Source: Bolinopsis microptera (Eukaryota). From it: a stretch of DNA of 64,000 bases. The notes under the pieces were generated by a model. That model was not told the origin of the DNA and did not search any database. It saw nothing but the letters and a program-made list of their open reading frames with translations. This document shows, in pieces, positions 2,229-32,542 of this stretch; within the stretch, counting starts at the first letter, position 1; the number at the start of each line of letters is the position of its first letter. The position numbers and the translations under genes are program-made. Location: NCBI RefSeq assembly GCF_026151205.1, contig NC_087073.1, forward strand, positions 10,202,636 through 10,266,635. Reading direction: 5' to 3'.

Positions 2229-3784
2229 ACACTATCCTTTTGATATTGAGATATTGGTATTTCAGATCACGTGTACATCGTTCCTTTTTTTACGACACAG
2301 TAATTTATTGACACTCACAGCTATAATTTTAATCATTGAATCAGTATTTTTATCTGTGCTCTGCGAATGCATCACATGAATCAGTTTTTTAATCTATTAA
2401 CTTATTACACATTTGTGCTCTGCTTTAGCATCACTTGACTATTTAAAAAAAATTGTTTGTTCAGGCCATGACCTTATAGTCAGCCAATTGGCCATTGCTA
2501 TATTATGTGTATATTGTCTTAGTAAAGCTTATACTATAAAGCTAACAAACGAGTATTTGGAAGGAATCTTAGATAAAAAGATATTGATGTCATTTATCAC
2601 TTTATTTCTAGCAAAACTTTCTCTTGGTAAAATGTTTATGATCTTAATTTTTGCAGCTGGAGCCCACGAGTGAAGTGACTGGATCAGATTATCAATAGAG
2701 CGATTGGTGTTATCAAGGGCCTTTGCTTTTCCTGTGAACTCATCGGGTGACAATAATCTATTCCTCATGTGTCGAGGACTCTCTAGGATTAAGTGATACT
2801 ATCAATCAAATGAATACACAGGCAACGGAAATGGTCCATGGCTACCTTTTTTTCAGATCTCAATAATGTGTTCATTTGGGCCCTAAACAAAAAAGTGCTG
2901 CCTAGAATGGCCAGGATATGTAGGACGTAGGTGCGACAACTAAAACAATGTCAATTCCAACTAGTTGTGAAGCTTGTATGGACCTTTAGAAGTCGTTGGT
3001 TTACCACAGGAATTGATGGCAATACAAAATAGGCAAGGAAAATTCATGAAATGTATAATAGGGAACTTATTAATTAACTGATTAATCCATCCTAATGAGA
3101 TATAACAAACAGTATAATTAATATAATAGTTCCCGGAGCAATTGAAAAACCGTTAGCGGTGCGAAAAGATTCTAAGGATGCACATCACGTTTCTTCAGGG
3201 GACAATAATGACTTAAATTGTAAATTAGCACTAAACCTACTAGATATAGTAGTCGTGCAGTGGGTGCACAGAGGAATTTTATTTAATCTCGATTCAGTAG
3301 GACCCATCAAAGCGATTCGAAATGTTGTGTTGATATTTAGAGAGGGGTGAAAAATTTATAAAATAGCACTAAACCCACTAAATGCTAATTTTAGTAAAGT
3401 CGTGGGTGCAAAGAGGAATTTTATTTAATCTCAATTCAGACAGATTATCGGGAAATCCGCGATAGCAGATAAAGTATGACAGGGAGTAACCCATCAAAGC
3501 GATTCGAAATATTGTACCGTAAGTGTAACTTTTAATACACGTTTATTGCACAACCAACGCTGGACATGACTAATTACTCCAATCTGGAATATCTCTTCCA
3601 AAACTGGGCTATTAATGCCCAGAGATTGCTTAACTAGCCTTCAGTGACTGGTAACGGACTTAGTGGTTGCCGGTTGAGACTTAAAGTTCAACAAAAACAA
3701 CAATGGCGAACCTAGCAAGCGGCCACGGTCCTTTCGGTACAAATTTTCCTGCAGCATAGTCGGGACGCAACCCCAGGCATATGC

Positions 3785-3981
3785 ACTCTTGTTATTTTCG
3801 CAGCTCTAATGAAAGCCACTACCATTCACACCATGGTTTGGTGAGTGACAGCTGCCCATCAATTTTGAAATCTGGGCCCAACTTGGATTCGAACTCGCAA
3901 CATATCACAATGACCCCTAAATACTTACTTGAAAGCTATGCTTCACGTTGGGAAGCTTTTTACTGGGCGGAGCTCCCGCCG
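3785..3981 (+). repeat. segment X copy 1 (~197 bp) carrying a tRNA-like T-arm motif on the minus strand; E is inserted immediately to its right
   Basis: Identical to 20740-20937. The rc contains gcgaGTTCGAATCcaagttgggccca (tRNA T-loop consensus), but I could not fold a cloverleaf, so it is probably tRNA-derived (SINE-like). Confidence 0.4.
3972..3981. repeat. target-site duplication GCTCCCGCCG of E copy 1 (partner at 11268-11277)
   Basis: Identical 10-mers abut both E termini. A single occurrence is seen at the empty site 20928-20937. Confidence 0.55.
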
Positions 3982-4367
3982 GATGATAATTAATCACTCT
4001 ACAGTCGACTGTCACGTGACAAAAACGCCGTGATTTCATTGGTTAACCTGATAACGCGCCGCAGATCTCTATAAACACAAATTATTCATCGCGCGTGCAG
4101 TAAACTCAAATTAAGTCCTAATTTGTTACCGAAATTTGGCAACTATCAACATCATGGCACAATTAAGTCGCATGCCCAGTAAATTGCTAATCAAATGTAC
4201 GGCACTAATAATACAGTCTACACTTACAGTGTATGAATTCATGAACAAATTTATTAAGGCAGATTGGTAGAACAACGATCGTAAATGATAATTTGTATTA
4301 ACAGTGGAAAGTGTTCTTAAGGGAGACTGTTGTGCAGCCATGTCGGGAGTTATAAAACACCGAACAC

Positions 4368-5400
4368 GACATTAAAAACACTTTCCAACTACAAAACTTA
4401 ACCACTAAACCAGCTTTGAGCACCATTTCTAGGTTATGAGACGGCTAAATGATGCGAATAATAAATCCTCAGAGCTCCCAGTACTCTACATTAAAAACAC
4501 TTTCCAACTACAAAACTTAACCACAAAACCAGCGAGATCTGAGCACTATTTCTAGGTTATGAGACGGCTAAATGATGCGAATAATAAATCCTCAGAGCTC
4601 CCAGTACTCTACATTAAAAACACTTTCCAACTACAAAACTTAACCACTAAACCAGCTTTGAGCACTATTTCTAGGTTATGAGACGGCTAAATGATGCGAA
4701 TAATAAATCCTCAGAGCTCCCAGTACTCTACATTAAAAACACTTTCCAACTACAAAACTTAACCACAAAACCAGCTCTGAGCACTATTTCTAGGTTATGA
4801 GACGGCTAAATGATGCGAATAATAAATCCTCAGAGCTCCCAGTACTCTACATTAAAAACACTTTCCAACTACAAAACTTAACCACAAAACCAGCTCTGAG
4901 CACTATTTCTAGGTTATGAGACGGCTAAATGATGCGAATAATAAATCCTCAGATCTCCCAGTACTCTACATTAAAAACACTTTCCAACTACAAAACTTAA
5001 CCACAAAACCAGCTCTGAGCACTATTTCTAGGTTATGAGACAGCTAAATGATGCCAATTATAAATCCTCAGAGCTCCCAGTACTCTACATTAAAAACACT
5101 TTCCAACTACAAAACTTAACCACTAAACTGCAGCTCTGTGCACTATTTCTAGGTTATGAGACGGCTAAATGATGCCAATTATAAATCCTCAGAGCTCCCA
5201 GTACTCTACATTAAAAACACTTTCCAACTACAAAACTTAACCACAAAACCAGCTCTGAGCACTATTTCTAGGTTATGAGACGGCTAAATGATGCGAATAA
5301 TAAATCCTCAGAGCTCCTAGTACTCTACATTAAAAACACTTTCCAACTACAAAACTTAACCACAAAGCCAGCTTTGAGCACTATTTCTAGGTTCTAAAAC
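4368..5400. repeat. ~119-bp satellite, ~9 tandem units, inside E copy 1
   Basis: The unit acattaaaaacactttccaactacaaaacttaaccac...cagagctcccagtactct restarts at 4368, 4488, 4611, 4730, 4849, 4968, 5087, 5208 and 5327. Confidence 0.85.
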
Positions 5401-7319
5401 GACAAAACGATGCGAATTATAAATCTCCCACTGCGTAAGCCGGTAAACTAATTAACCGGCTAAAAAAGCTGAGACGGCTATTATGTATTATCGTAACGAC
5501 ATGATCACGGCCGTTAAATGGCTATTAGTTGACTGTTCATAACAGCTGCTCTATATTTGTGCGCTCTATCATAAGGTTGTTTCAGAGCTGCTAAACTCCG
5601 GCTAATATAACAAGCCTTTTTATATAGCCATTTAAGAAGGAAAAATACTTAGCACTTTACAACCAACAATCACTCATGTTTTAAACCTTTATAGCGAGTC
5701 GGCATATTACAATTTTACCGAAGTCAATTATTTTTACTTGAAAAGTATAAGAGTTAAGACTGCAGAATCTTTAGTATTATAAGTATAAAAAGCAGAAAAA
5801 CACGCCACATGAGGTCTCAAAATATAGATAACAGTAAGATTTTTAATCTGCCTGCACGTGAGATGGGGGGAATGTTTTTTATTCTTCTTCTTTGCAGGAA
5901 GTGGTAACCTGTTCTATCCCTCTAGTTCTTTTTGTTGTTACGCCACTGCTTGTTGTATTTCCTGCTATCACTGGTTGTGTGTTCCGGCCCTGTTAGTGTT
6001 CTTGGACAGCCAGGACTGTTTTTCTTTGCTCCTGATAAGATATTTATGATAAGATATTTATGAAAAATAAAATAAGGAGGAAAGGAATTATTCAACGTTT
6101 CAATGTGACAACATCGTAATCAAACGTGGGATCAACAGAAATTTGACTCTCATAAATAATATTCAATTCGGATTTCAAATATAATAAGGAGCTAAATAAA
6201 GTAGTGTTTAAACCAAATTAATTGATGAGTACACCCGTCTTATTATATGCTATAGATTGAGTTATACAATATCAATATATACATCTATGCAGAATTTGAT
6301 ATGTATGAATCATGATTCCACCTAATTTGTGAACGGAAATTATTGCGGAATCGAAACTTTTTAAATACAGTAAAACCCCGATTGACCGCGGAGTTTGGGG
6401 GAAAGGAAACATCTGCGGTAAATCGGGGTTCGTGGTAAATCGGGGTTTTGTTTGTTTACATTATACTAATTGTATCGATGTAAATACGTTTGGTCAAAGA
6501 AGAGTCAACCTAAAAGTAACAATTACATGGTAGTTCAGTACACTAATAAATATGTTGAGGATATCAACCTTAACAAGATCCTGAAATCATTCTCAGACAT
6601 GTAGACTTCCTCAAGTCTCATGGAATTAAAATCAAGTCTGAGAATAGAAAGCTTCCATATCTGTATGGTACGACAAAAATGCACAAGGACCCTATTAAAT
6701 TTCGATTCATTACATCTGGAAGAAATAGTTCCTTGCAGCAGTTGTCTGTAGCTGTTGGATTATGTTTGAAAACGTGTCTGAAAGTTGCTAAAAATTATTC
6801 TGGGATTAATCTTACTTCGGAATATGTATTTTAGCATGACGTGTCATTCTTTTTGTTAGTTCGTTTTCAATTTTTGATCTTAATTTTAATTTTCAGTACG
6901 TTTTACCTAAAAATATCATTTTTTAGCTAGCAGAATGGTTTTCAGAGGGCATTAATGAAATGTACTATGAGCTGGTCCCAAGTCCAGACGCCATTTTATT
7001 CTTTGTAATTTTAAATAACACTGTCTAGTCATTGACTACTGAATATACATGGAAACATATGTGGTCATAAGCTATCTATACTATACATTGCACATCGTTT
7101 ATTAATTGTAATTAAAGCAAGTCATTGAATGTTTTATCTGGCAACAGTGCACTGGGTAGGAATGTGAGTGTGTACTGTGTATTTTTTGTAGCTCGCTCAA
7201 TGGTGAATCTTAACGTAGGCCAATTTTATTTAGAGATATCAATTATATCATAGCCAAACTGGGGAAGGTTTTCATAGTCAACTTAAACAAGTTGTGATTA
7301 CATTACATAAGCTGACGGT

Positions 7320-8548
7320 TATTTTCGATTTTCTCAAGATCTAACTGATAGAATTTGAAATATTTCCTTGTGTTTGAAGTCATATCTCACGTTTGGCACA
7401 TAGAAATTCGCGCAAACTTGCTCAGATTATCCGTCTTATAGACATGTGACTATCTGGAAAGTTTAAAGAAATTCTATCAGTTAGATCTTGAGATAATCGA
7501 CTTTCGTCAAATATCGTACCAAAACCGCCAATTTGAGATATTTTAATGTGTTTGAAGTCATATCTCAAGTTTGGCTCATAAAAATTCGCCCAAACTTGCT
7601 CAGATTAATCGTCTTATAACCATGTAACTATCTGGAAAGTTTAAAAAATTCTATCAGTTAGATCTCAAAATATATGCCCGCGTTCCGCGAGAACGCACCA
7701 ATTAGAGATATTTTCTTGTGTTTGAAGTTATATCTCAAATTTGGCATATAGAAATTCGCTCAAACTTGCTCATATTGTCTGTCTTATAGCCATGTAACTA
7801 TTTGGAAACATTTTAAGAAATTCTATCAGTAAGATCTTGAGATAATGGACTTTCGTCAAATATCGTACCAAAACTGCCAATTTGAGATATTTTAATGTGT
7901 TTGAATTCATATCTCAAGTTTGGCACATATGAATTCGCCCAAACTTGCTCAGATTAATCGTCTTATAGCCATGTAACTATCTAGGGGGGGGGGGAGCCAA
8001 GGAGATATTTGTAGATATTTGTAGATTAATGTAGAATGAATAATCCACGAAAAAAGTGGTTGACATTCTACAAATTTATACATTTATCTCCAAAAATTCA
8101 GTAGAATTTCTGGGCACATATTTGAGATTACATTTTTGTAGATAAATGTAGATATTTGTAGATTATTGTCAATGGATAATTCACGAAAATTCTACAAATT
8201 CTACAAATTTATACATTTATCTCCAAAAATTCAGTAGAATTTCTGGGCACATATTTGAGATATACATTTTTTGTAGATAAATGTAGATATTTGTAGATTA
8301 TTGTAATGGATAATTCACGAAAAAAGTGGTGAATTAACGTATCCAAATATCTACAAAAATCTACTTGGCTCCCCCCCTATCTGGAAAGTTTAAAGAAATT
8401 CTATCAGTTAGATCTTGAGATAATCGACTTTCGTCAAATATCGTACCAAAACCGCCAATTTGAGATATTTTAATGTTTTTGAAGTCATATCTCAAGTTTG
8501 GCACATAGAAATTTGCCCAAACTTGCTCAGATTATCCGTCTTATAAAT
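7320..8548. repeat. ~178-bp satellite, ~5 units, inside E copy 1; interrupted by a nested MITE
   Basis: The unit tatctggaaagtttaaagaaattctatcagttagatcttgagataatcgactttcgtcaaatatcgtaccaaaaccgccaatttgagatatt...cttgctcagatta.tcgtcttata.ccatgtaac restarts at ~7451, 7629, 7799, 7978 and 8388. Confidence 0.8.
7983..8387. mobile_element. nested ~400-bp MITE with poly-G/poly-C termini (GGGGGGGAGCCAAG...CTTGGCTCCCCCCC), inserted in a satellite unit
   Basis: It interrupts the satellite between aactatct and ggaaag. 'tatct' is present on both sides, giving a probable 5-bp target-site duplication. The interior is two ~130-bp subrepeats (tacaaat/tagatatttgtagat-rich). Confidence 0.5.
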
Positions 8549-8756
8549 CAAGAGGCTTGCATATAATGAACATGTTGACATGGGTGCAGAGTTGAGTCTG
8601 TACGGAACCTAGTAGTTTCAGTTCCTTGTTTAACTTGCCGTACAGCAAGGACATCCACTACTTTAGCCCGGCGAGGCACATAACTCACTCTACAACTCCA
8701 TGTCAAATGTTTCATATATTCATATATAGCCATGTAACTATCTGGAAAGTTTAAAG

Positions 8757-9328
8757 TCAGGGTCAGGATCAGGATCAGGATCAGGATCAGGATCAGGGTC
8801 AGGATCAGGGTCAGGGTCAGGGTCAGGGTCAGGGTCAGGGTCAGGGTCAGGGTCAGGGTCAGGGTCAGGGTCAGGGTCAGGGTCAGGGTCAGGGTCAGGG
8901 TCAGGGTCAGGGTCAGGGTCAGGGTCAGGGTCAGGGTCAGGGTCAGGGTCAGGGTCAGGGTCAGGGTCAGGGTCAGGGTCAGGGTCAGGGTCAGGGTCAG
9001 GGTCAGGGTCAGGGTCAGGGTCAGGGTCAGGGTCAGGGTCAGGGTCAGGGTCAGGGTCAGGGTCAGGGTCAGGGTCAGGGTCAGGGTCAGGGTCAGGGTC
9101 AGGGTCAGGGTCAGGGTCAGGGTCAGGGTCAGGGTCAGGGTCAGGGTCAGGGTCAGGGTCAGGGTCAGGGTCAGGGTCAGGGTCAGGGTCAGGGTCAGGG
9201 TCAGGGTCAGGGTCAGGGTCAGGGTCAGGGTCAGGGTCAGGGTCAGGGTCAGGGTCAGGGTCAGGGTCAGGGTCAGGGTCAGGGTCAGGGTCAGGGTCAG
9301 GGTCAGGGTCAGGGTCAGGGTCAGGGTT
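8757..9328. repeat. hexanucleotide microsatellite (TCAGGG)n / (GGGTCA)n, ~95 units, preceded by a few TCAGGA units
   Basis: Pure hexamer array. It accounts for the spurious 265-aa 'TLTLTL' ORF at 8548-9345. The array begins inside a satellite unit, right after ...ctggaaagtttaaag. Confidence 0.95.
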
Positions 9329-11267
9329 AATTGTCGCCCACCCATTTTACCATGGAAAATGTAGTCATAAGCTATCTATATATAATATTATACATTGCAC
9401 ATCGTTTATTAATTGTAATTAAAGCAACTCATTGAATGTTTTATCTGGCAACAGTTATTATACATAGTGTGCACTGAGTAGGAATGTGAGTATGTATTTT
9501 TTGTACTTATTAACGGTGAATCTTAACGTGGGCTGATTTTATTTGGTGATATCAATTATTTCATAGCCAAACTGGGGAAGGTTAAATAAAACAAGTTGTA
9601 ATTAAATTAAATTAGCTGATAGTAGAAACTTTTCGCAAATAAACTGTGAATTAACAGTGAACAGTGAACACATATAATTTGAGAGAGAATTGATTCGTTC
9701 ACCGGACACATACATTATACTGTCCAGAGATATTATGGGAGGTTCAAGCTTATTAAAAGATTCTTTGAACTTTTGAAAAGTAGCAAAAATTGAGAAAAAT
9801 TGATAATCTAGGAGGGGATAGGGAGTTGGTTCAAACATATAAGTAATAAAACATGTTTTATTTTGCAGAATTATACAATATGCATATGTTATCGTCTTCG
9901 ACTATAAGGGATGATGGGGCGATGACGTGATTATAATTATATATGATAAAGTTCCAGGTGATGACTAATTGAAGGCGTGTAAGTGTGAGGATGAAGAATC
10001 AGCCTTGATGCATGAGCTGGAAGGGTGAACGAGGTAAAAATATGTACATGGTACAATTTCATAGAAACTGAGAACAAAAATCCTTTACATCAGTACAGAC
10101 CGATATGCTTGCCTTCAATTACAAACCTTGCTTTAAAAATGATATTGTTATTCAAGTTAAAAGCCTTCGAAGTTTTTTAATAAACTATCGCATGATATTG
10201 TATATCAATCAAATTGCAACTCTTAAGTTAACTTGTTGTTTAATTGTATTACTGAGTCATAAATGAACACTTGTAGTACGTACCTATATGGCGGTTGATC
10301 TGCAACTTGTCCCATGCTGATGAACCTGATAATTAAAATATTTGTTGTAAATATCCATAATATTCACACTAGATTCTAGACGGCAAAGTTCGAATTGCAG
10401 TCGGAACTGCAGAGTGGAGACGTACATTTTGTTAATTTACTAAAGTAACTGGTAAAAACACTTCTATGGAAATAAAACCAGGTTATATAATAAATTTATA
10501 GTCTATTAAACTACATCGATAATAGTATATTATATGGATAACAATAATAATAATATCAGTTTCGGCTGCTCAGGTCAAAATTCGAAAACCTATCATTTTA
10601 TGCAGCCTAGATTTAATGATTCAAATAAGAAGCGCAGTGTTTCTAAAGTAAGACCGTAGACTTCTACAATAGCTGGATCAGCTATGGCTTAAGGAAAAAC
10701 AATATATGCTCTTCGCATAAAAAAAACACAATTAAAACGAATGCAAAATTTGTGATTCTATTTCTAGGATGACATATCAAAAATATTTTTAAATAGGACT
10801 CAAGCAATCAGGCGTAATCTAAACTATAGTTTATTGATACTTCAACTTGGCTTTGCTTTATATTAAAATCTCAGCATTTTGATCCAGCGAAAAATTCTAT
10901 TTGTACCTCGACTCATATGTCATACGAAACAGTACACTAGAAAATACGGCTCAACAATTTTAACTTCTGAAGGCGGCTCTGTATCATTCTACATTCTGAC
11001 AACAGTCCTTCTATGCTATGTCAACAATTTAAAAACCTATTCATTCAACTTATAGGATTTCAAGGTATTACACAAGTGGCAATGATGAATCATGGATGAT
11101 AATTGATTATTGACGAAAACTCGACAAGCAAGTTTGAAACCCAAAGTAAGAAATCGGGATCAAATATGATTGACACGTAACGCGCGCGTATAACATGTGC
11201 TTATCCAATGCGAAACTAAAAGTGGTGAAAATGGAAGAATCGACTGTAGAGTGATTTAGCGCGACCG

Positions 11268-11277
11268 GCTCCCGCCG
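11268..11277. repeat. target-site duplication GCTCCCGCCG of E copy 1 (partner at 3972-3981)
   Basis: See partner. Confidence 0.55.
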
Positions 11278-12249
11278 AATAACATTCTCAATTCAATAGC
11301 AATCAAATGTTTACAATTAAACCAAACTGTGCACAATTGTAATGCGTGTGATATAGTTAAGAGACAAATACACGGTAAAGTAGGGTCAAGTAAAAATTAT
11401 GACATCACATCATCATACATGTCTAAAAAATATCATCGCATAAAATATAAAATAAATATTTCCCCACCAACATTAACTATTTACCAAATAAAATATTCTA
11501 AAAAAATTTATCAAAACATTATCCTATAAAGATCTTATCAAACTTCGCAGTGGAATACAAATTTATAAATTGCTTCCTTGCCACATGAGGACGAAACCAA
11601 ACACAATTGTTATGTTTCTCTTTATTACTTAAATTTAACAATAAGATTTTTTGAAACAGTGTACACATAATGTCACAATGACCCTATATAAAAATAACCC
11701 TTCAAAAAATCAATATTTTGAAAATCACCCTCGACCCTGTTATGGGCTCCAAGTTCAAATCTAAACTGTATATATTGACAAAGTTCTTACTCGCCCCTCT
11801 GTCTCCCTCTTTCTTACTGACAGAACTGGCTGGGTAAATATTAAAAAATACGTGGTAGAGAAACAAAACAAAAACCAATTTTTTTATTAATCATTCTGTA
11901 ATCAAAAATTAATATTGTAAACAATAATGTAAGACAGAGAGATTTTAAAAAGATTATATATTTAAAAAAGATCCTGTCCTCATTTGAAGGTTCGATGGTT
12001 GTAGCGCAATGCACTACTGGGCCACGCCGCACATCAAATAATTGTTCTCGCAACCGGTATAGATCGGCGAAATGCACATCGGTGAATTGGGCCTCGCCTT
12101 GTATCACGTCGTGACCCACATTGTCGTTTTACTAATACAGGGGAGCCGCGCACGAGGGTCATACAATGTGTGACAAATTTCGACAAGAAAGTGGCGCACT
12201 ACTTTGAAAAAATTTAAACGAGTATCACCCGTCTTTACATACAACATAG

Positions 12250-12375
12250 CCATGTGTTTACGCGTACTGCGTGACGTTGCTCTAACCATGAACCAGAGCC
12301 TCTCGCTTCATGTGAAACAAGCGCGTCACGCAGTACGCGTAGACACATGACTATGTGAATGCGTGACACACTTGT
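12250..12375. repeat. compound hairpin: ~32-bp inverted repeat (catagccatgtgtttacgcgtactgcgtgacg / cgtcacgcagtacgcgtagacacatgactatg) with an overlapping second inverted repeat (catgtgaaacaagcgcgtcacgc / gcgtgacacacttgtttcacaag)
   Basis: Read directly as reverse complements. Also present in the copy at ~24005-24130. Confidence 0.6.
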
Positions 12376-12397
12376 TTCACAAGTAGAATATCTTTGC

Positions 12398-13257
12398 CGC
12401 CTTCGGCGGTCGCGCGCTACTGCAGGCGAGAGGGATCTGGTTACAGCAATCACCCGTCAAAATTAATGATATGGCACAATATTTACAGTTTCAAAGGTTT
12501 TTTTGTAGTTTACTATATTCTACTTGCTAGTCCATCTATATTATAATTTAAAGTATTATGTTTGTTTGCACTTGCCATAATATTTCGAGAAGAAATCGGT
12601 GCGCGCTTCTTCGAAGAAATTTAGACGAGTAATATCTTGGAGGACTTCGCCGCTTCGATGCGCCGCGCAAGCTAGCATTCTTGCTTCGCGTCGCAGAGCT
12701 ACGATCTGGAAGGGTTGACATCGTCAATCAATGATCAAGTAACATCTGTCAATAACGAGGGTTATTTTACACACATGCACGTGCAATCATTGTTGGAACG
12801 ACGCGACATTTTCAACATAAGGAAGCAGCTTCGTTTTGAAATCCTAATAAGAACAACAGTGATTTCTTTACGGGGAGACAGAGGTGCGATAAAAAACTTT
12901 ATAACAAGTTCGGCCTAAAATTTGACCATTGTTAATGATCTGGCCCGGCGCGCGCTACTTCGTAGCACGTGCCATCGTTTCGAGAAAATTACTTTGAAGA
13001 AATTTAGACGAGTAACGTCCGTCAATCTAAAATATGTAAAAATTTTAGGTTTGATACCGTTAGTAGTGTCAACTGTCATCAGTAATACGAATCACAAAAT
13101 GGAATAAGGTTCAAGGGGATTAGCTCAACATAAGCTTCCGTAACAGTGTTTCCCAACCCATCCTAACAGCTATATAAAATTGGTTATACATTTGAGGAAG
13201 CAACACAATATTAAATAATACTGCATATGTTGCTCTAACCAGAGCCCTCTCGCTTGC
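12398..13257. mobile_element. TIR-bounded ~0.9 kb segment of Y (TIR ~45 bp, GCCTTCGGCGGTCGCGCGCTACTGCAGGCGAGAGGGATCTGGTTA); its 3' TIR is truncated by the duplication breakpoint
   Basis: The full copy at ~24155-25040 ends with aaccagagccctctcgcttgcagtagcgcgcgaccgccgaaggc, which is the reverse complement of its start. In unit 1 the end stops at gcagtagc|A. Confidence 0.35.
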
Positions 13258-13428
13258 AGTAGCTATTAATGCCCAGAGATTGCTTAACTAGCCTTCAGTG
13301 ACTGGTAACGGACTTAGTGGTTGCCGGTTGAGACTTAAAGTTCAACAAAAACAACAATGGCGAACCTAGCAAGCGGCCACGGTCCTTTCGGTACAAATTT
13401 TCCTGCAGCATAGTCGGGACGCAACCCC

Positions 13429-13438
13429 AGGCATATGC
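13429..13438. repeat. target-site duplication AGGCATATGC of E copy 2 (partner at 20730-20739)
   Basis: Identical 10-mers abut both E termini. A single occurrence is seen at the empty site 3775-3784. Confidence 0.55.
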
Positions 13439-15377
13439 GGTCGCGCTAAATCACTCTACAGTCGATTCTTCCATTTTCACCACTTTTAGTTTCGCATTGG
13501 ATAAGCACATGTTATACGCGCGCGTTACGTGTCAATCATATTTGATCCCGATTTCTTACTTTGGGTTTCAAACTTGCTTGTCGAGTTTTCGTCAATAATC
13601 AATTATCATCCATGATTCATCATTGCCACTTGTGTAATACCTTGAAATCCTATAAGTTGAATGAATAGGTTTTTAAATTGTTGACATAGCATAGAAGGAC
13701 TGTTGTCAGAATGTAGAATGATACAGAGCCGCCTTCAGAAGTTAAAATTGTTGAGCCGTATTTTCTAGTGTACTGTTTCGTATGACATATGAGTCGAGGT
13801 ACAAATAGAATTTTTCGCTGGATCAAAATGCTGAGATTTTAATATAAAGCAAAGCCAAGTTGAAGTATCAATAAACTATAGTTTAGATTACGCCTGATTG
13901 CTTGAGTCCTATTTAAAAATATTTTTGATATGTCATCCTAGAAATAGAATCACAAATTTTGCATTCGTTTTAATTGTGTTTTTTTTATGCGAAGAGCATA
14001 TATTGTTTTTCCTTAAGCCATAGCTGATCCAGCTATTGTAGAAGTCTACGGTCTTACTTTAGAAACACTGCGCTTCTTATTTGAATCATTAAATCTAGGC
14101 TGCATAAAATGATAGGTTTTCGAATTTTGACCTGAGCAGCCGAAACTGATATTATTATTATTGTTATCCATATAATATACTATTATCGATGTAGTTTAAT
14201 AGACTATAAATTTATTATATAACCTGGTTTTATTTCCATAGAAGTGTTTTTACCAGTTACTTTAGTAAATTAACAAAATGTACGTCTCCACTCTGCAGTT
14301 CCGACTGCAATTCGAACTTTGCCGTCTAGAATCTAGTGTGAATATTATGGATATTTACAACAAATATTTTAATTATCAGGTTCATCAGCATGGGACAAGT
14401 TGCAGATCAACCGCCATATAGGTACGTACTACAAGTGTTCATTTATGACTCAGTAATACAATTAAACAACAAGTTAACTTAAGAGTTGCAATTTGATTGA
14501 TATACAATATCATGCGATAGTTTATTAAAAAACTTCGAAGGCTTTTAACTTGAATAACAATATCATTTTTAAAGCAAGGTTTGTAATTGAAGGCAAGCAT
14601 ATCGGTCTGTACTGATGTAAAGGATTTTTGTTCTCAGTTTCTATGAAATTGTACCATGTACATATTTTTACCTCGTTCACCCTTCCAGCTCATGCATCAA
14701 GGCTGATTCTTCATCCTCACACTTACACGCCTTCAATTAGTCATCACCTGGAACTTTATCATATATAATTATAATCACGTCATCGCCCCATCATCCCTTA
14801 TAGTCGAAGACGATAACATATGCATATTGTATAATTCTGCAAAATAAAACATGTTTTATTACTTATATGTTTGAACCAACTCCCTATCCCCTCCTAGATT
14901 ATCAATTTTTCTCAATTTTTGCTACTTTTCAAAAGTTCAAAGAATCTTTTAATAAGCTTGAACCTCCCATAATATCTCTGGACAGTATAATGTATGTGTC
15001 CGGTGAACGAATCAATTCTCTCTCAAATTATATGTGTTCACTGTTCACTGTTAATTCACAGTTTATTTGCGAAAAGTTTCTACTATCAGCTAATTTAATT
15101 TAATTACAACTTGTTTTATTTAACCTTCCCCAGTTTGGCTATGAAATAATTGATATCACCAAATAAAATCAGCCCACGTTAAGATTCACCGTTAATAAGT
15201 ACAAAAAATACATACTCACATTCCTACTCAGTGCACACTATGTATAATAACTGTTGCCAGATAAAACATTCAATGAGTTGCTTTAATTACAATTAATAAA
15301 CGATGTGCAATGTATAATATTATATATAGATAGCTTATGACTACATTTTCCATGGTAAAATGGGTGGGCGACAATTA

Positions 15378-15957
15378 ACCCTGACCCTGACCCTGACCCT
15401 GACCCTGACCCTGACCCTGACCCTGACCCTGACCCTGACCCTGACCCTGACCCTGACCCTGACCCTGACCCTGACCCTGACCCTGACCCTGACCCTGACC
15501 CTGACCCTGACCCTGACCCTGACCCTGACCCTGACCCTGACCCTGACCCTGACCCTGACCCTGACCCTGACCCTGACCCTGACCCTGACCCTGACCCTGA
15601 CCCTGACCCTGACCCTGACCCTGACCCTGACCCTGACCCTGACCCTGACCCTGACCCTGACCCTGACCCTGACCCTGACCCTGACCCTGACCCTGACCCT
15701 GACCCTGACCCTGACCCTGACCCTGACCCTGACCCTGACCCTGACCCTGACCCTGACCCTGACCCTGACCCTGACCCTGACCCTGACCCTGACCCTGACC
15801 CTGACCCTGACCCTGACCCTGACCCTGACCCTGACCCTGACCCTGACCCTGACCCTGACCCTGACCCTGACCCTGACCCTGACCCTGACCCTGACCCTGA
15901 CCCTGATCCTGACCCTGATCCTGATCCTGATCCTGATCCTGATCCTGACCCTGACTT
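15378..15957. repeat. mirror hexamer array (CCCTGA)n, ~96 units
   Basis: Reverse complement of the left array. It is one unit longer (267- vs 265-aa spurious ORF). Confidence 0.95.
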
Positions 15958-16161
15958 TAAACTTTCCAGATAGTTACATGGCTATATATGAATATATGAA
16001 ACATTTGACATGGAGTTGTAGAGTGAGTTATGTGCCTCGCCGGGCTAAAGTAGTGGATGTCCTTGCTGTACGGCAAGTTAAACAAGGAACTGAAACTACT
16101 AGGTTCCGTACAGACTCAACTCTGCACCCATGTCAACATGTTCATTATATGCAAGCCTCTT

Positions 16162-17390
16162 GATTTATAAGACGGATAATCTGAGCAAGTTTGGGCAAAT
16201 TTCTATGTGCCAAACTTGAGATATGACTTCAAAAACATTAAAATATCTCAAATTGGCGGTTTTGGTACGATATTTGACGAAAGTCGATTATCTCAAGATC
16301 TAACTGATAGAATTTCTTTAAACTTTCCAGATAGGGGGGGAGCCAAGTAGATTTTTGTAGATATTTGGATACGTTAATTCACCACTTTTTTCGTGAATTA
16401 TCCATTACAATAATCTACAAATATCTACATTTATCTACAAAAAATGTATATCTCAAATATGTGCCCAGAAATTCTACTGAATTTTTGGAGATAAATGTAT
16501 AAATTTGTAGAATTTGTAGAATTTTCGTGAATTATCCATTGACAATAATCTACAAATATCTACATTTATCTACAAAAATGTAATCTCAAATATGTGCCCA
16601 GAAATTCTACTGAATTTTTGGAGATAAATGTATAAATTTGTAGAATGTCAACCACTTTTTTCGTGGATTATTCATTCTACATTAATCTACAAATATCTAC
16701 AAATATCTCCTTGGCTCCCCCCCCCCCAGATAGTTACATGGCTATAAGACGATTAATCTGAGCAAGTTTGGGCGAATTCATATGTGCCAAACTTGAGATA
16801 TGAATTCAAACACATTAAAATATCTCAAATTGGCAGTTTTGGTACGATATTTGACGAAAGTCCATTATCTCAAGATCTTACTGATAGAATTTCTTAAAAT
16901 GTTTCCAAATAGTTACATGGCTATAAGACAGACAATATGAGCAAGTTTGAGCGAATTTCTATATGCCAAATTTGAGATATAACTTCAAACACAAGAAAAT
17001 ATCTCTAATTGGTGCGTTCTCGCGGAACGCGGGCATATATTTTGAGATCTAACTGATAGAATTTTTTAAACTTTCCAGATAGTTACATGGTTATAAGACG
17101 ATTAATCTGAGCAAGTTTGGGCGAATTTTTATGAGCCAAACTTGAGATATGACTTCAAACACATTAAAATATCTCAAATTGGCGGTTTTGGTACGATATT
17201 TGACGAAAGTCGATTATCTCAAGATCTAACTGATAGAATTTCTTTAAACTTTCCAGATAGTCACATGTCTATAAGACGGATAATCTGAGCAAGTTTGCGC
17301 GAATTTCTATGTGCCAAACGTGAGATATGACTTCAAACACAAGGAAATATTTCAAATTCTATCAGTTAGATCTTGAGAAAATCGAAAATA
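16162..17390. repeat. mirror copy of the ~178-bp satellite inside E copy 2
   Basis: Reverse complement of 7320-8548. Confidence 0.8.
16334..16738. mobile_element. mirror copy of the nested poly-G/C-terminated MITE
   Basis: Reverse complement of 7983-8387. The G-run and C-run lengths are swapped accordingly (7 vs 11). Confidence 0.5.
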
Positions 17391-19309
17391 ACCGTCAGCT
17401 TATGTAATGTAATCACAACTTGTTTAAGTTGACTATGAAAACCTTCCCCAGTTTGGCTATGATATAATTGATATCTCTAAATAAAATTGGCCTACGTTAA
17501 GATTCACCATTGAGCGAGCTACAAAAAATACACAGTACACACTCACATTCCTACCCAGTGCACTGTTGCCAGATAAAACATTCAATGACTTGCTTTAATT
17601 ACAATTAATAAACGATGTGCAATGTATAGTATAGATAGCTTATGACCACATATGTTTCCATGTATATTCAGTAGTCAATGACTAGACAGTGTTATTTAAA
17701 ATTACAAAGAATAAAATGGCGTCTGGACTTGGGACCAGCTCATAGTACATTTCATTAATGCCCTCTGAAAACCATTCTGCTAGCTAAAAAATGATATTTT
17801 TAGGTAAAACGTACTGAAAATTAAAATTAAGATCAAAAATTGAAAACGAACTAACAAAAAGAATGACACGTCATGCTAAAATACATATTCCGAAGTAAGA
17901 TTAATCCCAGAATAATTTTTAGCAACTTTCAGACACGTTTTCAAACATAATCCAACAGCTACAGACAACTGCTGCAAGGAACTATTTCTTCCAGATGTAA
18001 TGAATCGAAATTTAATAGGGTCCTTGTGCATTTTTGTCGTACCATACAGATATGGAAGCTTTCTATTCTCAGACTTGATTTTAATTCCATGAGACTTGAG
18101 GAAGTCTACATGTCTGAGAATGATTTCAGGATCTTGTTAAGGTTGATATCCTCAACATATTTATTAGTGTACTGAACTACCATGTAATTGTTACTTTTAG
18201 GTTGACTCTTCTTTGACCAAACGTATTTACATCGATACAATTAGTATAATGTAAACAAACAAAACCCCGATTTACCACGAACCCCGATTTACCGCAGATG
18301 TTTCCTTTCCCCCAAACTCCGCGGTCAATCGGGGTTTTACTGTATTTAAAAAGTTTCGATTCCGCAATAATTTCCGTTCACAAATTAGGTGGAATCATGA
18401 TTCATACATATCAAATTCTGCATAGATGTATATATTGATATTGTATAACTCAATCTATAGCATATAATAAGACGGGTGTACTCATCAATTAATTTGGTTT
18501 AAACACTACTTTATTTAGCTCCTTATTATATTTGAAATCCGAATTGAATATTATTTATGAGAGTCAAATTTCTGTTGATCCCACGTTTGATTACGATGTT
18601 GTCACATTGAAACGTTGAATAATTCCTTTCCTCCTTATTTTATTTTTCATAAATATCTTATCATAAATATCTTATCAGGAGCAAAGAAAAACAGTCCTGG
18701 CTGTCCAAGAACACTAACAGGGCCGGAACACACAACCAGTGATAGCAGGAAATACAACAAGCAGTGGCGTAACAACAAAAAGAACTAGAGGGATAGAACA
18801 GGTTACCACTTCCTGCAAAGAAGAAGAATAAAAAACATTCCCCCCATCTCACGTGCAGGCAGATTAAAAATCTTACTGTTATCTATATTTTGAGACCTCA
18901 TGTGGCGTGTTTTTCTGCTTTTTATACTTATAATACTAAAGATTCTGCAGTCTTAACTCTTATACTTTTCAAGTAAAAATAATTGACTTCGGTAAAATTG
19001 TAATATGCCGACTCGCTATAAAGGTTTAAAACATGAGTGATTGTTGGTTGTAAAGTGCTAAGTATTTTTCCTTCTTAAATGGCTATATAAAAAGGCTTGT
19101 TATATTAGCCGGAGTTTAGCAGCTCTGAAACAACCTTATGATAGAGCGCACAAATATAGAGCAGCTGTTATGAACAGTCAACTAATAGCCATTTAACGGC
19201 CGTGATCATGTCGTTACGATAATACATAATAGCCGTCTCAGCTTTTTTAGCCGGTTAATTAGTTTACCGGCTTACGCAGTGGGAGATTTATAATTCGCAT
19301 CGTTTTGTC

Positions 19310-20342
19310 GTTTTAGAACCTAGAAATAGTGCTCAAAGCTGGCTTTGTGGTTAAGTTTTGTAGTTGGAAAGTGTTTTTAATGTAGAGTACTAGGAGCTCT
19401 GAGGATTTATTATTCGCATCATTTAGCCGTCTCATAACCTAGAAATAGTGCTCAGAGCTGGTTTTGTGGTTAAGTTTTGTAGTTGGAAAGTGTTTTTAAT
19501 GTAGAGTACTGGGAGCTCTGAGGATTTATAATTGGCATCATTTAGCCGTCTCATAACCTAGAAATAGTGCACAGAGCTGCAGTTTAGTGGTTAAGTTTTG
19601 TAGTTGGAAAGTGTTTTTAATGTAGAGTACTGGGAGCTCTGAGGATTTATAATTGGCATCATTTAGCTGTCTCATAACCTAGAAATAGTGCTCAGAGCTG
19701 GTTTTGTGGTTAAGTTTTGTAGTTGGAAAGTGTTTTTAATGTAGAGTACTGGGAGATCTGAGGATTTATTATTCGCATCATTTAGCCGTCTCATAACCTA
19801 GAAATAGTGCTCAGAGCTGGTTTTGTGGTTAAGTTTTGTAGTTGGAAAGTGTTTTTAATGTAGAGTACTGGGAGCTCTGAGGATTTATTATTCGCATCAT
19901 TTAGCCGTCTCATAACCTAGAAATAGTGCTCAGAGCTGGTTTTGTGGTTAAGTTTTGTAGTTGGAAAGTGTTTTTAATGTAGAGTACTGGGAGCTCTGAG
20001 GATTTATTATTCGCATCATTTAGCCGTCTCATAACCTAGAAATAGTGCTCAAAGCTGGTTTAGTGGTTAAGTTTTGTAGTTGGAAAGTGTTTTTAATGTA
20101 GAGTACTGGGAGCTCTGAGGATTTATTATTCGCATCATTTAGCCGTCTCATAACCTAGAAATAGTGCTCAGATCTCGCTGGTTTTGTGGTTAAGTTTTGT
20201 AGTTGGAAAGTGTTTTTAATGTAGAGTACTGGGAGCTCTGAGGATTTATTATTCGCATCATTTAGCCGTCTCATAACCTAGAAATGGTGCTCAAAGCTGG
20301 TTTAGTGGTTAAGTTTTGTAGTTGGAAAGTGTTTTTAATGTC
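19310..20342. repeat. mirror copy of the ~119-bp satellite inside E copy 2
   Basis: Reverse complement of 4368-5400. Confidence 0.85.
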
Positions 20343-20729
20343 GTGTTCGGTGTTTTATAACTCCCGACATGGCTGCACAACAGTCTCCCTTAAGAACACT
20401 TTCCACTGTTAATACAAATTATCATTTACGATCGTTGTTCTACCAATCTGCCTTAATAAATTTGTTCATGAATTCATACACTGTAAGTGTAGACTGTATT
20501 ATTAGTGCCGTACATTTGATTAGCAATTTACTGGGCATGCGACTTAATTGTGCCATGATGTTGATAGTTGCCAAATTTCGGTAACAAATTAGGACTTAAT
20601 TTGAGTTTACTGCACGCGCGATGAATAATTTGTGTTTATAGAGATCTGCGGCGCGTTATCAGGTTAACCAATGAAATCACGGCGTTTTTGTCACGTGACA
20701 GTCGACTGTAGAGTGATTAATTATCATCC

Positions 20730-20739
20730 AGGCATATGC
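20730..20739. repeat. target-site duplication AGGCATATGC of E copy 2 (partner at 13429-13438)
   Basis: See partner. Confidence 0.55.
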
Positions 20740-20937
20740 ACTCTTGTTATTTTCGCAGCTCTAATGAAAGCCACTACCATTCACACCATGGTTTGGTGAG
20801 TGACAGCTGCCCATCAATTTTGAAATCTGGGCCCAACTGGGATTCGAACTCGCAACATATCACAATGACCCCTAAATACTTACTTGAAAGCTATGCTTCA
20901 CGTTGGGAAGCTTTTTACTGGGCGGAGCTCCCGCCGA
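20740..20937 (+). repeat. segment X copy 2; E is inserted immediately to its left
   Basis: Direct repeat of 3785-3981. It is followed by gctcccgccg|aataacattc with no interruption, which is the empty site for the copy-1 insertion. Confidence 0.4.
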
Positions 20938-21716
20938 ATAACATTCTCAATTCAATAGCAATCAAATGTTTACAATTAAACCAAACTGTGCACAATTGTA
21001 ATGCGTGTGATATAGTTAAGAGACAAATACACGGTAAAGTAGGGTCAAGTAAAAATTATGACATCACATCATCATACATGTCTAAAAAATATCATCGCAT
21101 AAAATATAAAATAAATATTTCCCCACCAACATTAACTATTTACCAAATAAAATATTCTAAAAAAATTTATCAAAACATTATCCTATTTTAAAGATCTTAT
21201 CAAACTTCGCAGTGGAATACAAATTTATAAATTGCTTCTTTGCCACATGAGGACGAAACCAAACACAATCGTTATGTTTCTCTTTATTACTTAGATTGGA
21301 CAATAAGATTTTTTGAAACAGTGTATATATAAAAATAACCCTTCAAAAAATCAATATTTTGAAAATCACCCTCGACCCTGTTATGGGCTCCAAGTTCAAA
21401 TCTAAACTGTATATATTGACAGAGTTCTTACTTCTTACTCGCCCCTCTGTCTCCCTCTTTCTTACTGACATAACTGGCTGGGTAAATATTAAAAAATACG
21501 TGGTAGAGAAACAAAAAAAACCAATTTTTTTATTAATCATTCTGTAATCAAAAATTAATATTGTAAACAATAATAATGTAAGACAGAAAGATTTTAAAAA
21601 GATTATATATTTAAAAAAGATCCTGTCCTCATTTGAAGGTTCGATGGTTGTAGCGCAATGCACTACTGGGCCACGCCGCACATCAAATAATTGTTCTCGC
21701 AACCGGTATAATAGAT

Positions 21717-22216
21717 TTTACCAAAACCCATAATCATGGGTAGAGTGGACCGCTGTCAGTGTCTCTCTTTCCCAAACAAAAGGAAATGATATTACTTTGA
21801 ATGACCGTTATCAAATGCAAAATGATACCGAGAATGAAATCGGTCGCTCGCTTTTCCCATTCATTCACGGCTTACGAATTGTAATAAGTTTCGATTGATT
21901 ACATCAATCAGATGCTGTAAAAATCTCTTTGGGTTGCGTTCGGGTCGATACCTAGTATTTCGGGGTAAGGGTGGTAGTTATTAGTATTACTTATTGAATT
22001 AGCTGAAGTTTATTGAATCTTCATTGCCGAGTACAGCTGCCTTTGGGTAGTTCTTCTTAATCTATTACAATTGTAAATGAATGGGAAAAGCGAGCGACCG
22101 ATTTCATTCTCGGTATCATTTTGCATTTGAGAACGGTCAATCAAAGTAATATCATTTCCTTTTGTTTGGGAAAGAGAGACACTGACAGCGGTCCACTCTA
22201 CCCATGATTATGGGTT
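21717..22216. mobile_element. ~500-bp MITE with ~150-bp terminal inverted repeats, inserted into the Y copy of unit 2
   Basis: 21717-21868 (ttttaccaaaacccataatcatgggtagagtggaccgctgtcagtgtctc...) is the reverse complement of 22066-22216. It is absent from the corresponding site of unit 1 (12055, caaccggtatagatcggcg). Confidence 0.6.
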
Positions 22217-25200
22217 TTGGTAAAATATCATCTCTTTTTGATTATAATGTCAGGGTACTTTATAAAGTCGAAATATAAACTGATATCTTCATTAATAAGG
22301 AGGAAGTTTCAACGATTTCGAAATCTATCCTTTAAAAACATTTCCTTGTGTTTAGGGAAGCATATCGGTCGATCACAGACTGAATATGCCACTTAATACT
22401 CATTCAAGTTGGCATTAAATTCATATATAATGACATTAAACTGTCGTGGCAAAGCAGAATTTGTTGGAAATCACGAATGAGCAAAATTCTCACCTTTCGC
22501 ACGTGCAAACTTTGAGCAGACGTTGCGTGCGCATCCAATATTGAATAGCCGTAAATTTTTGCATGTAATTGTTTTATATATAGCTTGATAAGCATGCAAA
22601 GTTTCAAAGTATTTTAAGAAGAACTGTAATCACAACGGCACTCTAAAGTTGACAGAAAATGACGAAAACAGCAATTTTCAGTGATTTTAGCGATTTTCTA
22701 TCAATTTGGGCGTGTCCCAACGTGTGCAACTTTTCGATTTTCAACTTTAAAACTAGCCTATGACACAATTTATACCTATAGGAAGCAGAACTGAGCTCCA
22801 CAACCCAAGGCATGGCCCAACACCAGAGAATACTAAATCGCAAAATTGACGTTTTTATAAAATAATTCTTCAAAAAAGCACAAACTTCAATGACGAATAT
22901 TTTTATGAAGGAGCAAGCTAGAAAAACTTTCTGGTAGATTTTCAGAATGCTTGAACAATTATCTAAGATGAAAATTTCCTCAGATTTTGAATAAAATTAC
23001 TCCTTAATGGTTTAAAATTAATTTTAAAAGTTATTACTTTGTCAAAAATCAAATTTTAAAAACGGTTAACTTGATGACGTCATCAAGGGGTGTTTATGAC
23101 GTCATATAATTTTTTTATACAATGTAAACTAAAGTATAAACAATTATTTGCAAGACCTGTGGTCGGAAATGGCTGTATCTTTTACACTTTTGAATCTATG
23201 GACAATTAAATACAGGCTACAATTGACTGGCAAAGCGTCTATCCCTGAATATATATATATATGTATATATGTATCACGACAATCTATCGTAAAACAGGGG
23301 TTCTAGAAAACCCACTTCCCGATGCTCCTGAAACCTGAAACTTTTTTTGCAGTCGATTTGGTCAACGTCTAGACGCCCTGAAAAATTTCAGAGCTTTAAC
23401 TCAATTTTAACATGGTTTTTAAGGCACCTGAATATGGCGATTTTGGGTTTTTTACCGAATTTCGTATAACACCCTCGACCCTGTTATGGGCTCCAAGTTC
23501 AAATCTAAACTGTATATATTGACAGAGTTCTTACTTCTTACTCGCCCCTCTGTCTCCCTCTTTCTTACTGACATAACTGGCTGGGTAAATATTAAAAAAT
23601 ACGTGGTAGAGAAACAAAAAAAAACCAATTTTTTTATTAATCATTCTGTAATCAAAAATTAATATTGTAAACAATAATAATGTAAGACAGAAAGATTTTA
23701 AAAAGATTATATATTTAAAAAAGATCCTGTCCTCATTTGAAGGTTCGATGGTTGTAGCGCAATGCACTACTGGGCCACGCCGCACATCAAATAATTGTTC
23801 TCGCAACCGGTATAATAGATCGGCGAAATGCACATCGGGGAATTGGGCCTCGCCTTGTATCACGTCGTGACCCACATTGTCGTTTTACTAATACAGGGGA
23901 GCCGCGCACGAGGGTCATACAATGTGTGACAAATTTCGACAAGAAAGTGGCGCACTACTTTGAAAAAATTTAAACGAGTATCACCCGTCTTTACATACAA
24001 CATAGCCATGTGTTTACGCGTACTGCGTGACGTTGCTCTAACCATGAACCAGAGCCTCTCGCTTCATGTGAAACAAGCGCGTCACGCAGTACGCGTAGAC
24101 ACATGACTATGTGAATGCGTGACGCACTTGTTTCACAAGTAGAATATCTTTGCCGCCTTCGGCGGTCGCGCGCTACTGCAGGCGAGAGGGATCTGGTTAC
24201 AGCAATCACCCGTCAAAATTAATGATATGGCACAATATTTACAGTTTCAAAGGTTTTTTGTAGTTTACTATATTCTACTTGCTAGTCCATCTATATTATA
24301 ATTTAAAGTATTATGTTTGTTTGCACTTGCCATAATATTTCGAGAAGAAATCGGTGCGCGCTTCTTCGAAGAAATTTAGACGAGTAATATCTTGGAGGTC
24401 TTCGCCGCTTCGATGCGCCGCGCAAGCTAGCATTCTTGCTTCGCGTCGCAGAGCTACGATCTGGAAGGGTTGACATCGTCAATCAATGATCAAGTAACAT
24501 CTGTCAATAACGAGGGTTATTTTACACACATGCACGTGCAATCATTGTTGGAACGACGCGACATTTTCAACATAAGGAAGCAGCTTCGTTTTGAAATCCT
24601 AATAAGAACAACAGTGATTTCTTTACGGGGAGACATAGGTGCGATAAAAAACTTTATAACAAGTTCGGCCTAAAATTTGACCATTGTTAATGATCTGGCC
24701 CGGCGCGCGCTACTTCGTAGCACGTGCCATCGTTTCGAGAAGAAATTACTTTGAAGAAATTTAGACGAGTAACGTCCGTCAATCTAAAATATGTAAATAT
24801 TTTAGGTTTGATACCGTTAGTAATGTCAACTGTCATACGAATCACAAAATGGAATAAGGTTCAAGGGGATTAGCTCAACATAAGCTTCCGTAACAGTGTT
24901 TCCCAACCCATCCTAACAGCTATATAAAATTGGTTATACATTTGAGAAAGCAACACAATATTAAATAATACTGCATATGTTGCTCTAACCAGAGCCCTCT
25001 CGCTTGCAGTAGCGCGCGACCGCCGAAGGCATTACGCGTATACACATGGCTATGTGAACTGAATATGCATTGTCAAAAATATAAAATTAAAGGGGTGGTG
25101 GGGTGATCACAAAATGTGATGGTCCTGTAACCTGTTAAAGCTTAACGAATCTCAACATAAGTTGTAAGTGACATAGGAAGGTGACAAAGGGGTGTTAATG

Positions 25201-31700: not shown

Positions 31701-31768
31701 GTTTTGGTGATATGAGCACAGTTGGCATCCCTTCCTCTGAGCAGTTACCTCTCTGTACTGCTCTTCAG

Positions 31769-31956
31769 ATTCAGGACTCTATATCGGATACTACTCAGGA
31801 AAGGTTCTAAAGATACAGTCCGATAATGAAATCGACACATTGACCCCCCACAAAGGGAAGGTAAATCAGATCACTTCCTTTGAGATAGCAGGGACTGGGA
31901 AGTGGAGCGAAACAACTGAATTTGTTGCATCTTGCTCAGACGATGGAACAGTTCAT
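31769..31956 (+). CDS. TEP1: TEP1 exon 2 (WD40)
   Basis: Acceptor ctcttcag|at, 68-nt intron. Translation DSGLYIGYYSGKVLKIQSDNEIDTLTPHKGKVNQITSFEIAGTGKWSETTEFVASCSDDGTVH, then gtaagt. Confidence 0.65.
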
Positions 31957-32126
31957 GTAAGTTCTAGAAATTAAATTCTTTGTTCGATGTCTGTAATATT
32001 TTTGATTAATAGAGAACGATGTCGTGTTCAATACCAACGTCTGAATTGCGCATAATCTTAAAATTTATAATCATGATTTCTTTTATAGTTATTATAATCT
32101 GATTTTTATTTATTTATTGATTTTAG

Positions 32127-32348
32127 GTTCATTCCATACACGGTGACAACGCACTAGAAAATGAACTGACCCCACATATTGGGAAGATTCTAGCACTCTG
32201 CCCCGGAGCTACTGGAGTTATGTTCTCTGGAGGTTACGACTGTGCTATAACCGCCATGAAGTTTGAGAAGGACAATCAGTCCAAATACCTCACAGTACAG
32301 GAGGTCAAGTTACACGGACATACAGCTCCTGTTTCCACGCTTCTCACG
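32127..32348 (+). CDS. TEP1: TEP1 exon 3 (WD40)
   Basis: ttttag|gttcat ... VHSIHGDNALENELTPHIGKILALCPGATGVMFSGGYDCAITAMKFEKDNQSKYLTVQEVKLHGHTAPVSTLLT |gtatga. Confidence 0.6.
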
Positions 32349-32542
32349 GTATGAGCTGATTGTTAGTTTCGGCGTGTTACCTTTAAATACTATTGACATC
32401 ACCGTGAACATAATTTTACAAATACATAAAATCCAATCTGCCTCATATCGAGCTATGTACACTGTACAAGCTGTATAAGCTGTCCGTCTGCTATTATCAT
32501 CAATCCAAATCTGAATGAGTTTAACATTTCACTCCCCCTTAG

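Follow-up and report, generated by a model that had tools for sequence, protein, structure and literature searches.

Two insertions of element E in a tandem duplication

The 64-kb stretch of DNA analysed here (hereafter the window) carries two copies of a 7.29-kb mobile element, which we call E. Likely, a non-autonomous transposon family of the DDE type, which makes 9-bp target-site duplications (TSDs), integrated here recently and on two independent occasions. Each copy sits in one of the two units of a tandem duplication, is bounded by its own TSD, and is matched by an intact empty site in the sister unit. The host is a ctenophore, since the open reading frame (ORF) of the TEP1 gene near E is 81% identical to a Mnemiopsis leidyi protein (and 97–99% identical to ENA and Logan proteins); E is best explained as one of the non-coding members of a family of DNA transposons that occurs in ctenophores. 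As a clean natural record, the locus documents very recent activity of a DNA transposon in a phylum in which mobile elements have hardly been characterised; the biology is ordinary, and the general concept of transposition is unchanged.

Repeat finding and self-BLAST of the window returned exactly two tandem units, whose boundaries were read directly. Unit 1 (3608–13261, + strand; 2,360 bp without E) has the order A-X-E'-Y1, with E inverted, and unit 2 (13262–25013, + strand) has the order A-E-X-Y2, with an extra ~2.1 kb in Y2; self-BLAST and the repeat families both agree with the segment order given in a preliminary description of this DNA. Segment A is 100% identical between the units (3608–3784 = 13262–13438), X is 99.5% identical (3773–3981 = 20728–20936), and Y of unit 1 (11268–13263) matches 20927–25013. 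By self-BLAST, these flanking segments are all in direct orientation, none inverted. Without E, 15 substitutions in 2,360 nt (0.64%) separate the units, along with several small indels and the ~2.1-kb insertion in unit 2. At the junction between the units (Y1|A, 13261/13262), non-homologous partners meet without a gap and share 2 nt of microhomology: the start of A is joined there to a point in a second element, M, that is 16 nt within its right inverted repeat. In unit 2, a segment of ~1.75 kb (21717–23469) that is absent from unit 1 has 350-bp direct repeats on either side (21367–21716 = 23470–23820, 99.7%) and opens with a 512-bp foldback (arms 21715–21868 and 22073–22226, 98%); this extra segment may be a local tandem duplication or a complex insertion.

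E copy 1 (3981–11267, − strand, 7,287 bp, running from its R end to its L end) lies at the X|Y boundary of unit 1, and E copy 2 (13438–20729, + strand, 7,292 bp, running from its L end to its R end) lies at the A|X boundary of unit 2. Their coordinates come from reading the junctions, aligning the copies, and setting the termini by related ends from metagenomes, which are described below. The copies are 2,170 bp apart, and their insertion sites are 200 bp apart in homologous coordinates. Both have sharp, matching ends and are full-length to the base. As reverse complements of each other, they are 99.89% identical over 7,297 self-BLAST columns (3978–11267 against 20733–13438), consistent with the >99% first reported. 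Base-by-base alignment found no substitutions at all: the copies differ by one net hexamer unit in (ACCCTG)n and one base at a C-run.

The flanks of each copy were read directly. Copy 1 is bounded on its left (3972–3980) and right (11268–11276) by the 9-mer GCTCCCGCC, which occurs singly and without a footprint at the corresponding empty site in unit 2 (20927–20935). Copy 2 is bounded on its left (13429–13437) and right (20730–20738) by a different 9-mer, AGGCATATG, likewise single and footprint-free at the empty site in unit 1 (3775–3783). The 10-nt flanking strings of the preliminary description are present where it placed them (GCTCCCGCCG at 3972–3981 and 11268–11277; AGGCATATGC at 13429–13438 and 20730–20739), and the two intervals that it gave as reciprocal empty sites (3771–3791 and 20921–20947) are indeed intact and free of footprints. 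A separate TSD for each copy, together with a reciprocal empty site, establishes two independent integrations of one mobile element. Only a second integration explains why the full-length inverted copy has a separate 9-bp duplication, made from sequence present once in the sister unit.

Had the E copies been as old as the tandem duplication, ~46 differences between them would be expected, and none is seen; thus, the two integrations postdate the duplication by far. The absence of substitutions in 7.29 kb likewise upholds the earlier proposal of very recent mobilisation. A gene-conversion tract around the insertion sites was considered and set aside, as the first 640 nt hold 1 difference against ~4 expected, which is not significant (P ~0.09).

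Termini, related ends, and length of the target-site duplication

In the window, the 16-mer ATCACTCTACAGTCGA is found at the four E ends and nowhere else, and no occurrence is expected in shuffled sequence. It belongs to the shared inverted repeat that had been described as terminal. The repeat is real, but it is subterminal: a perfect 17-bp repeat, AATCACTCTACAGTCGA, lies 11 nt inside each terminus (3992–4008 [+] and 11240–11256 [−] in copy 1; 13449–13465 [+] and 20702–20718 [−] in copy 2), with 11 non-identical bases outside it at each end. The L terminus reads 5'-CGGTCGCGCTA and the R terminus 5'-GGATGATAATT, each followed by the 17-mer. Inward of the 17-mer, weaker and imperfect shared blocks extend to ~75 nt; further in, the two ends of E are unrelated.

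We scanned public marine metagenome contigs with the 17-mer. The scan returned 21 contigs, and in 13 of these the similarity continues into the 11-nt termini and stops exactly there. This supports the conclusion that E belongs to a real repeat family, and the search for further copies with the same termini, which had been proposed as a check, thus succeeded. Three E-like L ends (contigs L003, L022, and L023) all read CGGTCGCGCTA plus the 17-mer, with unrelated sequence outside; L022 and L023 are collinear with the left 1–4 kb of E at 68–86% identity. Eight contigs represent a second subfamily, F2, with the L end CG(A/T)(G/T/A)(C/G)GTGCT(A/T) plus the 17-mer. Two contigs have R-type ends (L008, GGATGGTCATT; L018, GGATGATGATT; each plus the 17-mer), and on the other strand these read ...CATCC and then unrelated sequence, like both E copies. 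Across an alignment of eight ends, G2, T10, and positions 12–28 are invariant, and the family consensus for the outer 11 nt is 5'-CG(G/A)NCG(C/T)GCTA at L ends and 5'-GGATG(A/G)TNATT at R ends. A putative ~370-bp relative of the MITE type (miniature inverted-repeat transposable elements) could be rebuilt from the overlapping contigs L012 and L008; as reconstructed from these two contigs, it has one L-type and one R-type end, as in E. Besides the E-related sequence, L017 and L004 carry matches of ~80% to the tandem unit outside E, so the animal behind these contigs is a relative of the one that the window came from.

These ends also bear on the element boundaries. The copy coordinates given earlier (3982–11267 and 13439–20729) are mutually offset by one base, such that copy 1 reads C-GGTCG...ATCATC and copy 2 reads GGTCG...ATCATC-C. 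Only two parsings are compatible with both insertions: CGGTCG...ATCATC with a 10-bp TSD, or CGGTCG...ATCATCC with a 9-bp TSD. We assign the terminal C of ...CATCC to the element because, if it lay outside, each of four independent insertion sites would have to begin with C, and no such preference is seen on the L side. The boundaries CGGTCG...ATCATCC place E at 3981–11267 and 13438–20729 with a TSD of 9 bp. With the termini fixed by the related metagenome ends, we consider it very likely that the TSD is 9 bp and not the 10 bp previously proposed. Pairing the metagenome ends by complementary flanks to obtain more TSDs yielded no pairs.

The exact termini, the 9-bp duplication, and the 28-nt end signature (CGGTCGCGCTAAATCACTCTACAGTCGA, GGATGATAATTAATCACTCTACAGTCGA) make copies in ctenophore genomes, and their transposase, findable. 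Should the family remain active, its insertions would serve as polymorphic markers and as a candidate genetic tool. Two further contig structures were observed. In L018 (608–832), an F2 MITE copy (L terminus at 785) is nested in a second family member, 45 nt inward of the R end of that member (terminus at 832), which indicates that the family inserts into itself. In L003 (330–470), an 80-nt E-like L-end fragment lies between sequences that are mutual reverse complements (GCTTAAGCCGGATG and CATCCGGCTTAAGC).

Coding capacity and repeat content of E

E is non-autonomous and has no coding ORF, as the preliminary description held. Stop codons number 251 in the first + frame tested and 149 in the first − frame tested, and long ORFs arise solely from translation of the hexamer array. 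Pfam returned nothing for the four E-derived stretches scanned. Sixteen stop-to-stop segments of E (from the left 1.7 kb, the middle, and the right end), used as a chimeric protein query, detected no homologue and no decayed transposase. An 86-codon stretch that resembles the N-terminus of a retroelement reverse transcriptase was discarded, as it lacks Pfam support. Exact-protein look-up of the TEP1 ORF, three E or unit ORFs, and a 151-aa X-Y ORF found none on record.

The interior of E carries four tandem arrays, one more than first counted: a hexamer array, (ACCCTG)x96, or (TCAGGG)n on the other strand (15378–15955, + strand; x95 in copy 1, 8756–9327); a 178-bp x3.6 array (16726–17358); a 119-bp x8.8 minisatellite (19285–20341), which ends 388 bp from the R terminus; and a 133-bp x2.4 array. 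The last lies within a nested 390-bp MITE (16334–16723) with 34-bp inverted repeats, which matches the nested MITE noted previously. Together, the arrays make up ~2.6 kb, or 35%, of E, so that its description as largely arrays was overstated. Contig L023 contains the flanking backbone of E and none of its arrays; thus, the arrays are lineage-specific additions.

The (TCAGGG)n array is one base off the metazoan telomere repeat TTAGGG. The short MITE relatives have 2–4 canonical TTAGGG units between their end regions (L012, 2468–2521; L019, 1528–1539; L008, 1027–1038). On the improbable view, taken up below, that the family is an undescribed lineage, these telomere-like repeats (the 96 TCAGGG units of E and the TTAGGG blocks of the MITE relatives) might have a role in its biology rather than being passengers. 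The neighbouring gene encodes telomerase-associated protein 1, which is probably a coincidence.

Proposed history and alternative explanations

We propose that a 2.36-kb segment was first duplicated in tandem to give units that are now 0.64% apart, and that much later E integrated twice, inverted at X|Y of unit 1 and in the other orientation at A|X of unit 2. A transposase supplied in trans would bind the 17-mer at both ends and cut 11 bp outside it, and the cut ends would be joined to target DNA cut with a 9-bp stagger, leaving 9-bp TSDs. The 9-bp stagger and the inverted-repeat ends point to an enzyme of the DDE type. For the second event, the most likely course would be that the first copy hopped locally, to a site at a distance of 2.2 kb, and that sister-chromatid repair or replication timing preserved the donor; such a hop is suggested by the spacing of the copies (2,170 bp, or 200 bp between sites in homologous coordinates). 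P and Ac/Ds elements are likewise subject to local transposition, in which the donor stays in place and a further copy, often inverted, inserts no more than a few kb from it; their duplications are 8 bp. E would resemble these systems in having a nearby inverted copy beside a putative donor that was kept, and differs from them in its duplication length.

Several points weigh against this account. No excision footprint is present and both copies are retained, so that cut-and-paste transposition, as claimed earlier, is not demonstrated: the integration step is directly visible, and the excision step would have to be assumed. The in-window 10-mers both start with C, which makes 9 and 10 bp indistinguishable from the window by itself; the 9-bp call draws on the two insertions in the window and only two independent metagenome R ends. 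Outside the window, no complete second-site insertion with both flanks was recovered, which limits the record of duplication length to the window. Neither the window, nor the 21 metagenome loci, nor protein searches with the E ORFs yielded a transposase. A currently active autonomous partner, as proposed in the preliminary description, is a reasonable expectation, but its transposase was found neither in the window nor at any related locus; with no transposase-encoding relative, superfamily placement depends on duplication length alone. The repeats of E also sit awkwardly with the superfamily that we favour below, the Mutator-like elements (MULEs): only 17 bp are perfect and these are subterminal, the blocks that extend to ~75 nt are imperfect, and the outer 11 nt differ.

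The tandem arrangement, moreover, comes from the assembly and not from reads, and an assembly artefact could have concatenated two haplotypes, A-X-E'-Y1 and A-E-X-Y2, in which case the insertions would be alternative alleles. The units are only 0.64% apart, plus indels and one 2.1-kb insertion, and divergence of this size occurs between alleles in highly polymorphic marine invertebrates; the window also holds exactly two units, which likewise favours this explanation. However, the Y1|A junction joins non-homologous sequence inside the right repeat of M with 2 nt of microhomology and no gap, a join that an overlap-based assembler should not make, as false haplotype duplication normally switches within homology. 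Such an artefact would, in any case, still need two independent integrations with separate 9-bp duplications, and we regard it as improbable. A fold-back assembly chimera, which had been named as a possible refutation, is excluded by the direct orientation of the flanks and by ends that match, to the base, the termini in unrelated contigs.

A single insertion followed by a replication- or recombination-based rearrangement (inverted duplication or template switching) might also have produced the second copy, given that the copies form a 7.3-kb inverted repeat with a spacer of only 2,170 bp, a structure of a kind seen in complex rearrangements. Against this, none of the segments A, X, and Y is inverted, the second copy is complete to the last base at either end, and it is flanked by a new 9-bp duplication (AGGCATATG) of sequence that occurs once in the sister unit, which no recombination, inversion, template switch, or unequal crossing-over creates. 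We therefore consider this origin extremely improbable and retain two independent integrations. Alternative transposition mediated by E itself, to which an apparent L-terminus remnant at the right boundary of the tandem duplication (25014–25022, GCGCGACCG) would have pointed, was likewise rejected: the remnant belongs to the 50-bp inverted repeat of M.

Superfamily placement

Terminal inverted repeats of MULEs are usually long and near-identical, commonly hundreds of bp, with non-TIR exceptions. P-superfamily elements make TSDs of 7–8 bp and hAT elements TSDs of 8 bp, and Foldback elements have long terminal inverted repeats built of tandem subrepeats. The duplication of E is 9 bp (10 under the earlier boundaries) and never 7–8 bp, which rejects P, nor is it the 8 bp of hAT. 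The arrays of E occur once each, not mirrored at the ends, and the ends are unrelated past ~75 nt, which rejects Foldback. Hence, the compatibility with P- or Foldback-like elements that was suggested earlier does not hold, for reasons of both TSD length and the lack of inverted repeats made of tandem repeats at the ends.

For MULEs, we put the chances at about even. Their TSDs are 8–11 bp, mostly 9 (PMC6446971), and both E insertions have 9 bp. Like E, non-autonomous MULEs combine a 9-bp TSD with a large interior of non-coding or cargo sequence and have short MITE-like relatives that share their termini, and they are moved in trans, as E presumably is. Unlike MULEs, the E family has no linked MURA-type transposase, its outer 11 nt are unequal, and its 17-bp repeat is subterminal. 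A closer match to Rehavkus, as put forward in the preliminary description, holds in part. Rehavkus elements have a 9-bp TSD, a minisatellite before the 3' repeat, and a PHD-finger transposase, and are known from arthropods and annelids only (PMC6446971). E shares with them the 9-bp TSD and a minisatellite near one end (the 119-bp x8.8 array, 388 bp from the R end), and the match goes no further: E has three other arrays that are not subterminal, and its host lies outside arthropods and annelids.

It is also possible, if doubtful, that E is not Mutator-like but a member of Merlin or of some other DDE superfamily, described or not. Merlin itself, the leading alternative, seems unlikely. Merlin elements have TSDs of 8–9 bp, terminal repeats of 24–462 bp, and 5'-GG termini, and intact Merlin ORFs are on record from the ctenophores Pleurobrachia and Beroe, with remnants in Mnemiopsis (PMC8101967). 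E fits in its duplication length, its short-to-medium repeats, its occurrence in a ctenophore, and an R end that begins with GG, and its short repeat and asymmetric ends are untypical of MULEs. However, Merlin has GG at both termini, whereas the L end begins with CG in 11/13 L-type ends; Merlin duplications are more often 8 bp, whereas 9 bp is the modal MULE duplication (PMC6446971); and no IS1595-type transposase was found for the E family.

Still less likely is a superfamily that has not been described. Such a DDE lineage, possibly ctenophore-specific, would have functionally distinct L and R ends, with the invariant 17-bp site recognised and cleavage 11 bp outside it, at termini that have only two bases in common. 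This geometry is retained in three or more subfamilies and in two or more species. A literature search, with Repbase and Dfam outside its scope, found no description of the E family; the family is new, or at least uncatalogued in the literature searched.

Other features of the window

Downstream of the tandem duplication, the TEP1 gene (TROVE-NACHT-WD40; 26675–37284, + strand) begins with an exon at 26675–31810 that contains a 1,711-codon ORF. A spliced, transcript-like Logan contig (L002) confirms the downstream TEP1 exons to ~37284 at 98–100% identity. Short matches of ~80% identity to the 3' part of this transcript occur at 2791–3493, upstream of E, and suggest a decayed TEP1 paralogue there. 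A further contig with TEP1 sequence that is 94% identical (L001, ENA sample ERZ25073835) diverges so far upstream that it does not reveal the locus, either occupied by E or empty.

Element M is MITE-like and ~876 bp long, with one complete copy (24155–25030) and a truncated copy in unit 1 (12399–13263). Its inverted repeats of ~50 bp read GCCTTCGGCGGTCGCGCGCTACTGCA(G/A)GCGAGAGGG... and contain CGGTCGCGC(GC)TA, which is near-identical to the 11-nt L terminus of E; the 9-mer occurs five times in the window against 0.04 expected.

Scans of the window for tRNAs and Rfam families were empty, and a viral-contig scan gave a chance match only. Self-BLAST revealed two minisatellite or low-complexity arrays (35997–36677 and 49123–49380), one in the TEP1 intron region and the other giving rise to repetitive ORFs at 49067–49477. 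Fragments of non-long-terminal-repeat (non-LTR) retrotransposons are present as an Exo_endo_phos endonuclease (3–851, − strand) and an RVT_1 reverse transcriptase (41027–43555, + strand). A 390-codon open stretch (1056–2225, + strand) has no Pfam hit and carries the peptide LPVRHGGLGI, which we take to be a motif of the C-termini of ORF2 in long interspersed nuclear elements. The window also contains a DENN-domain exon.

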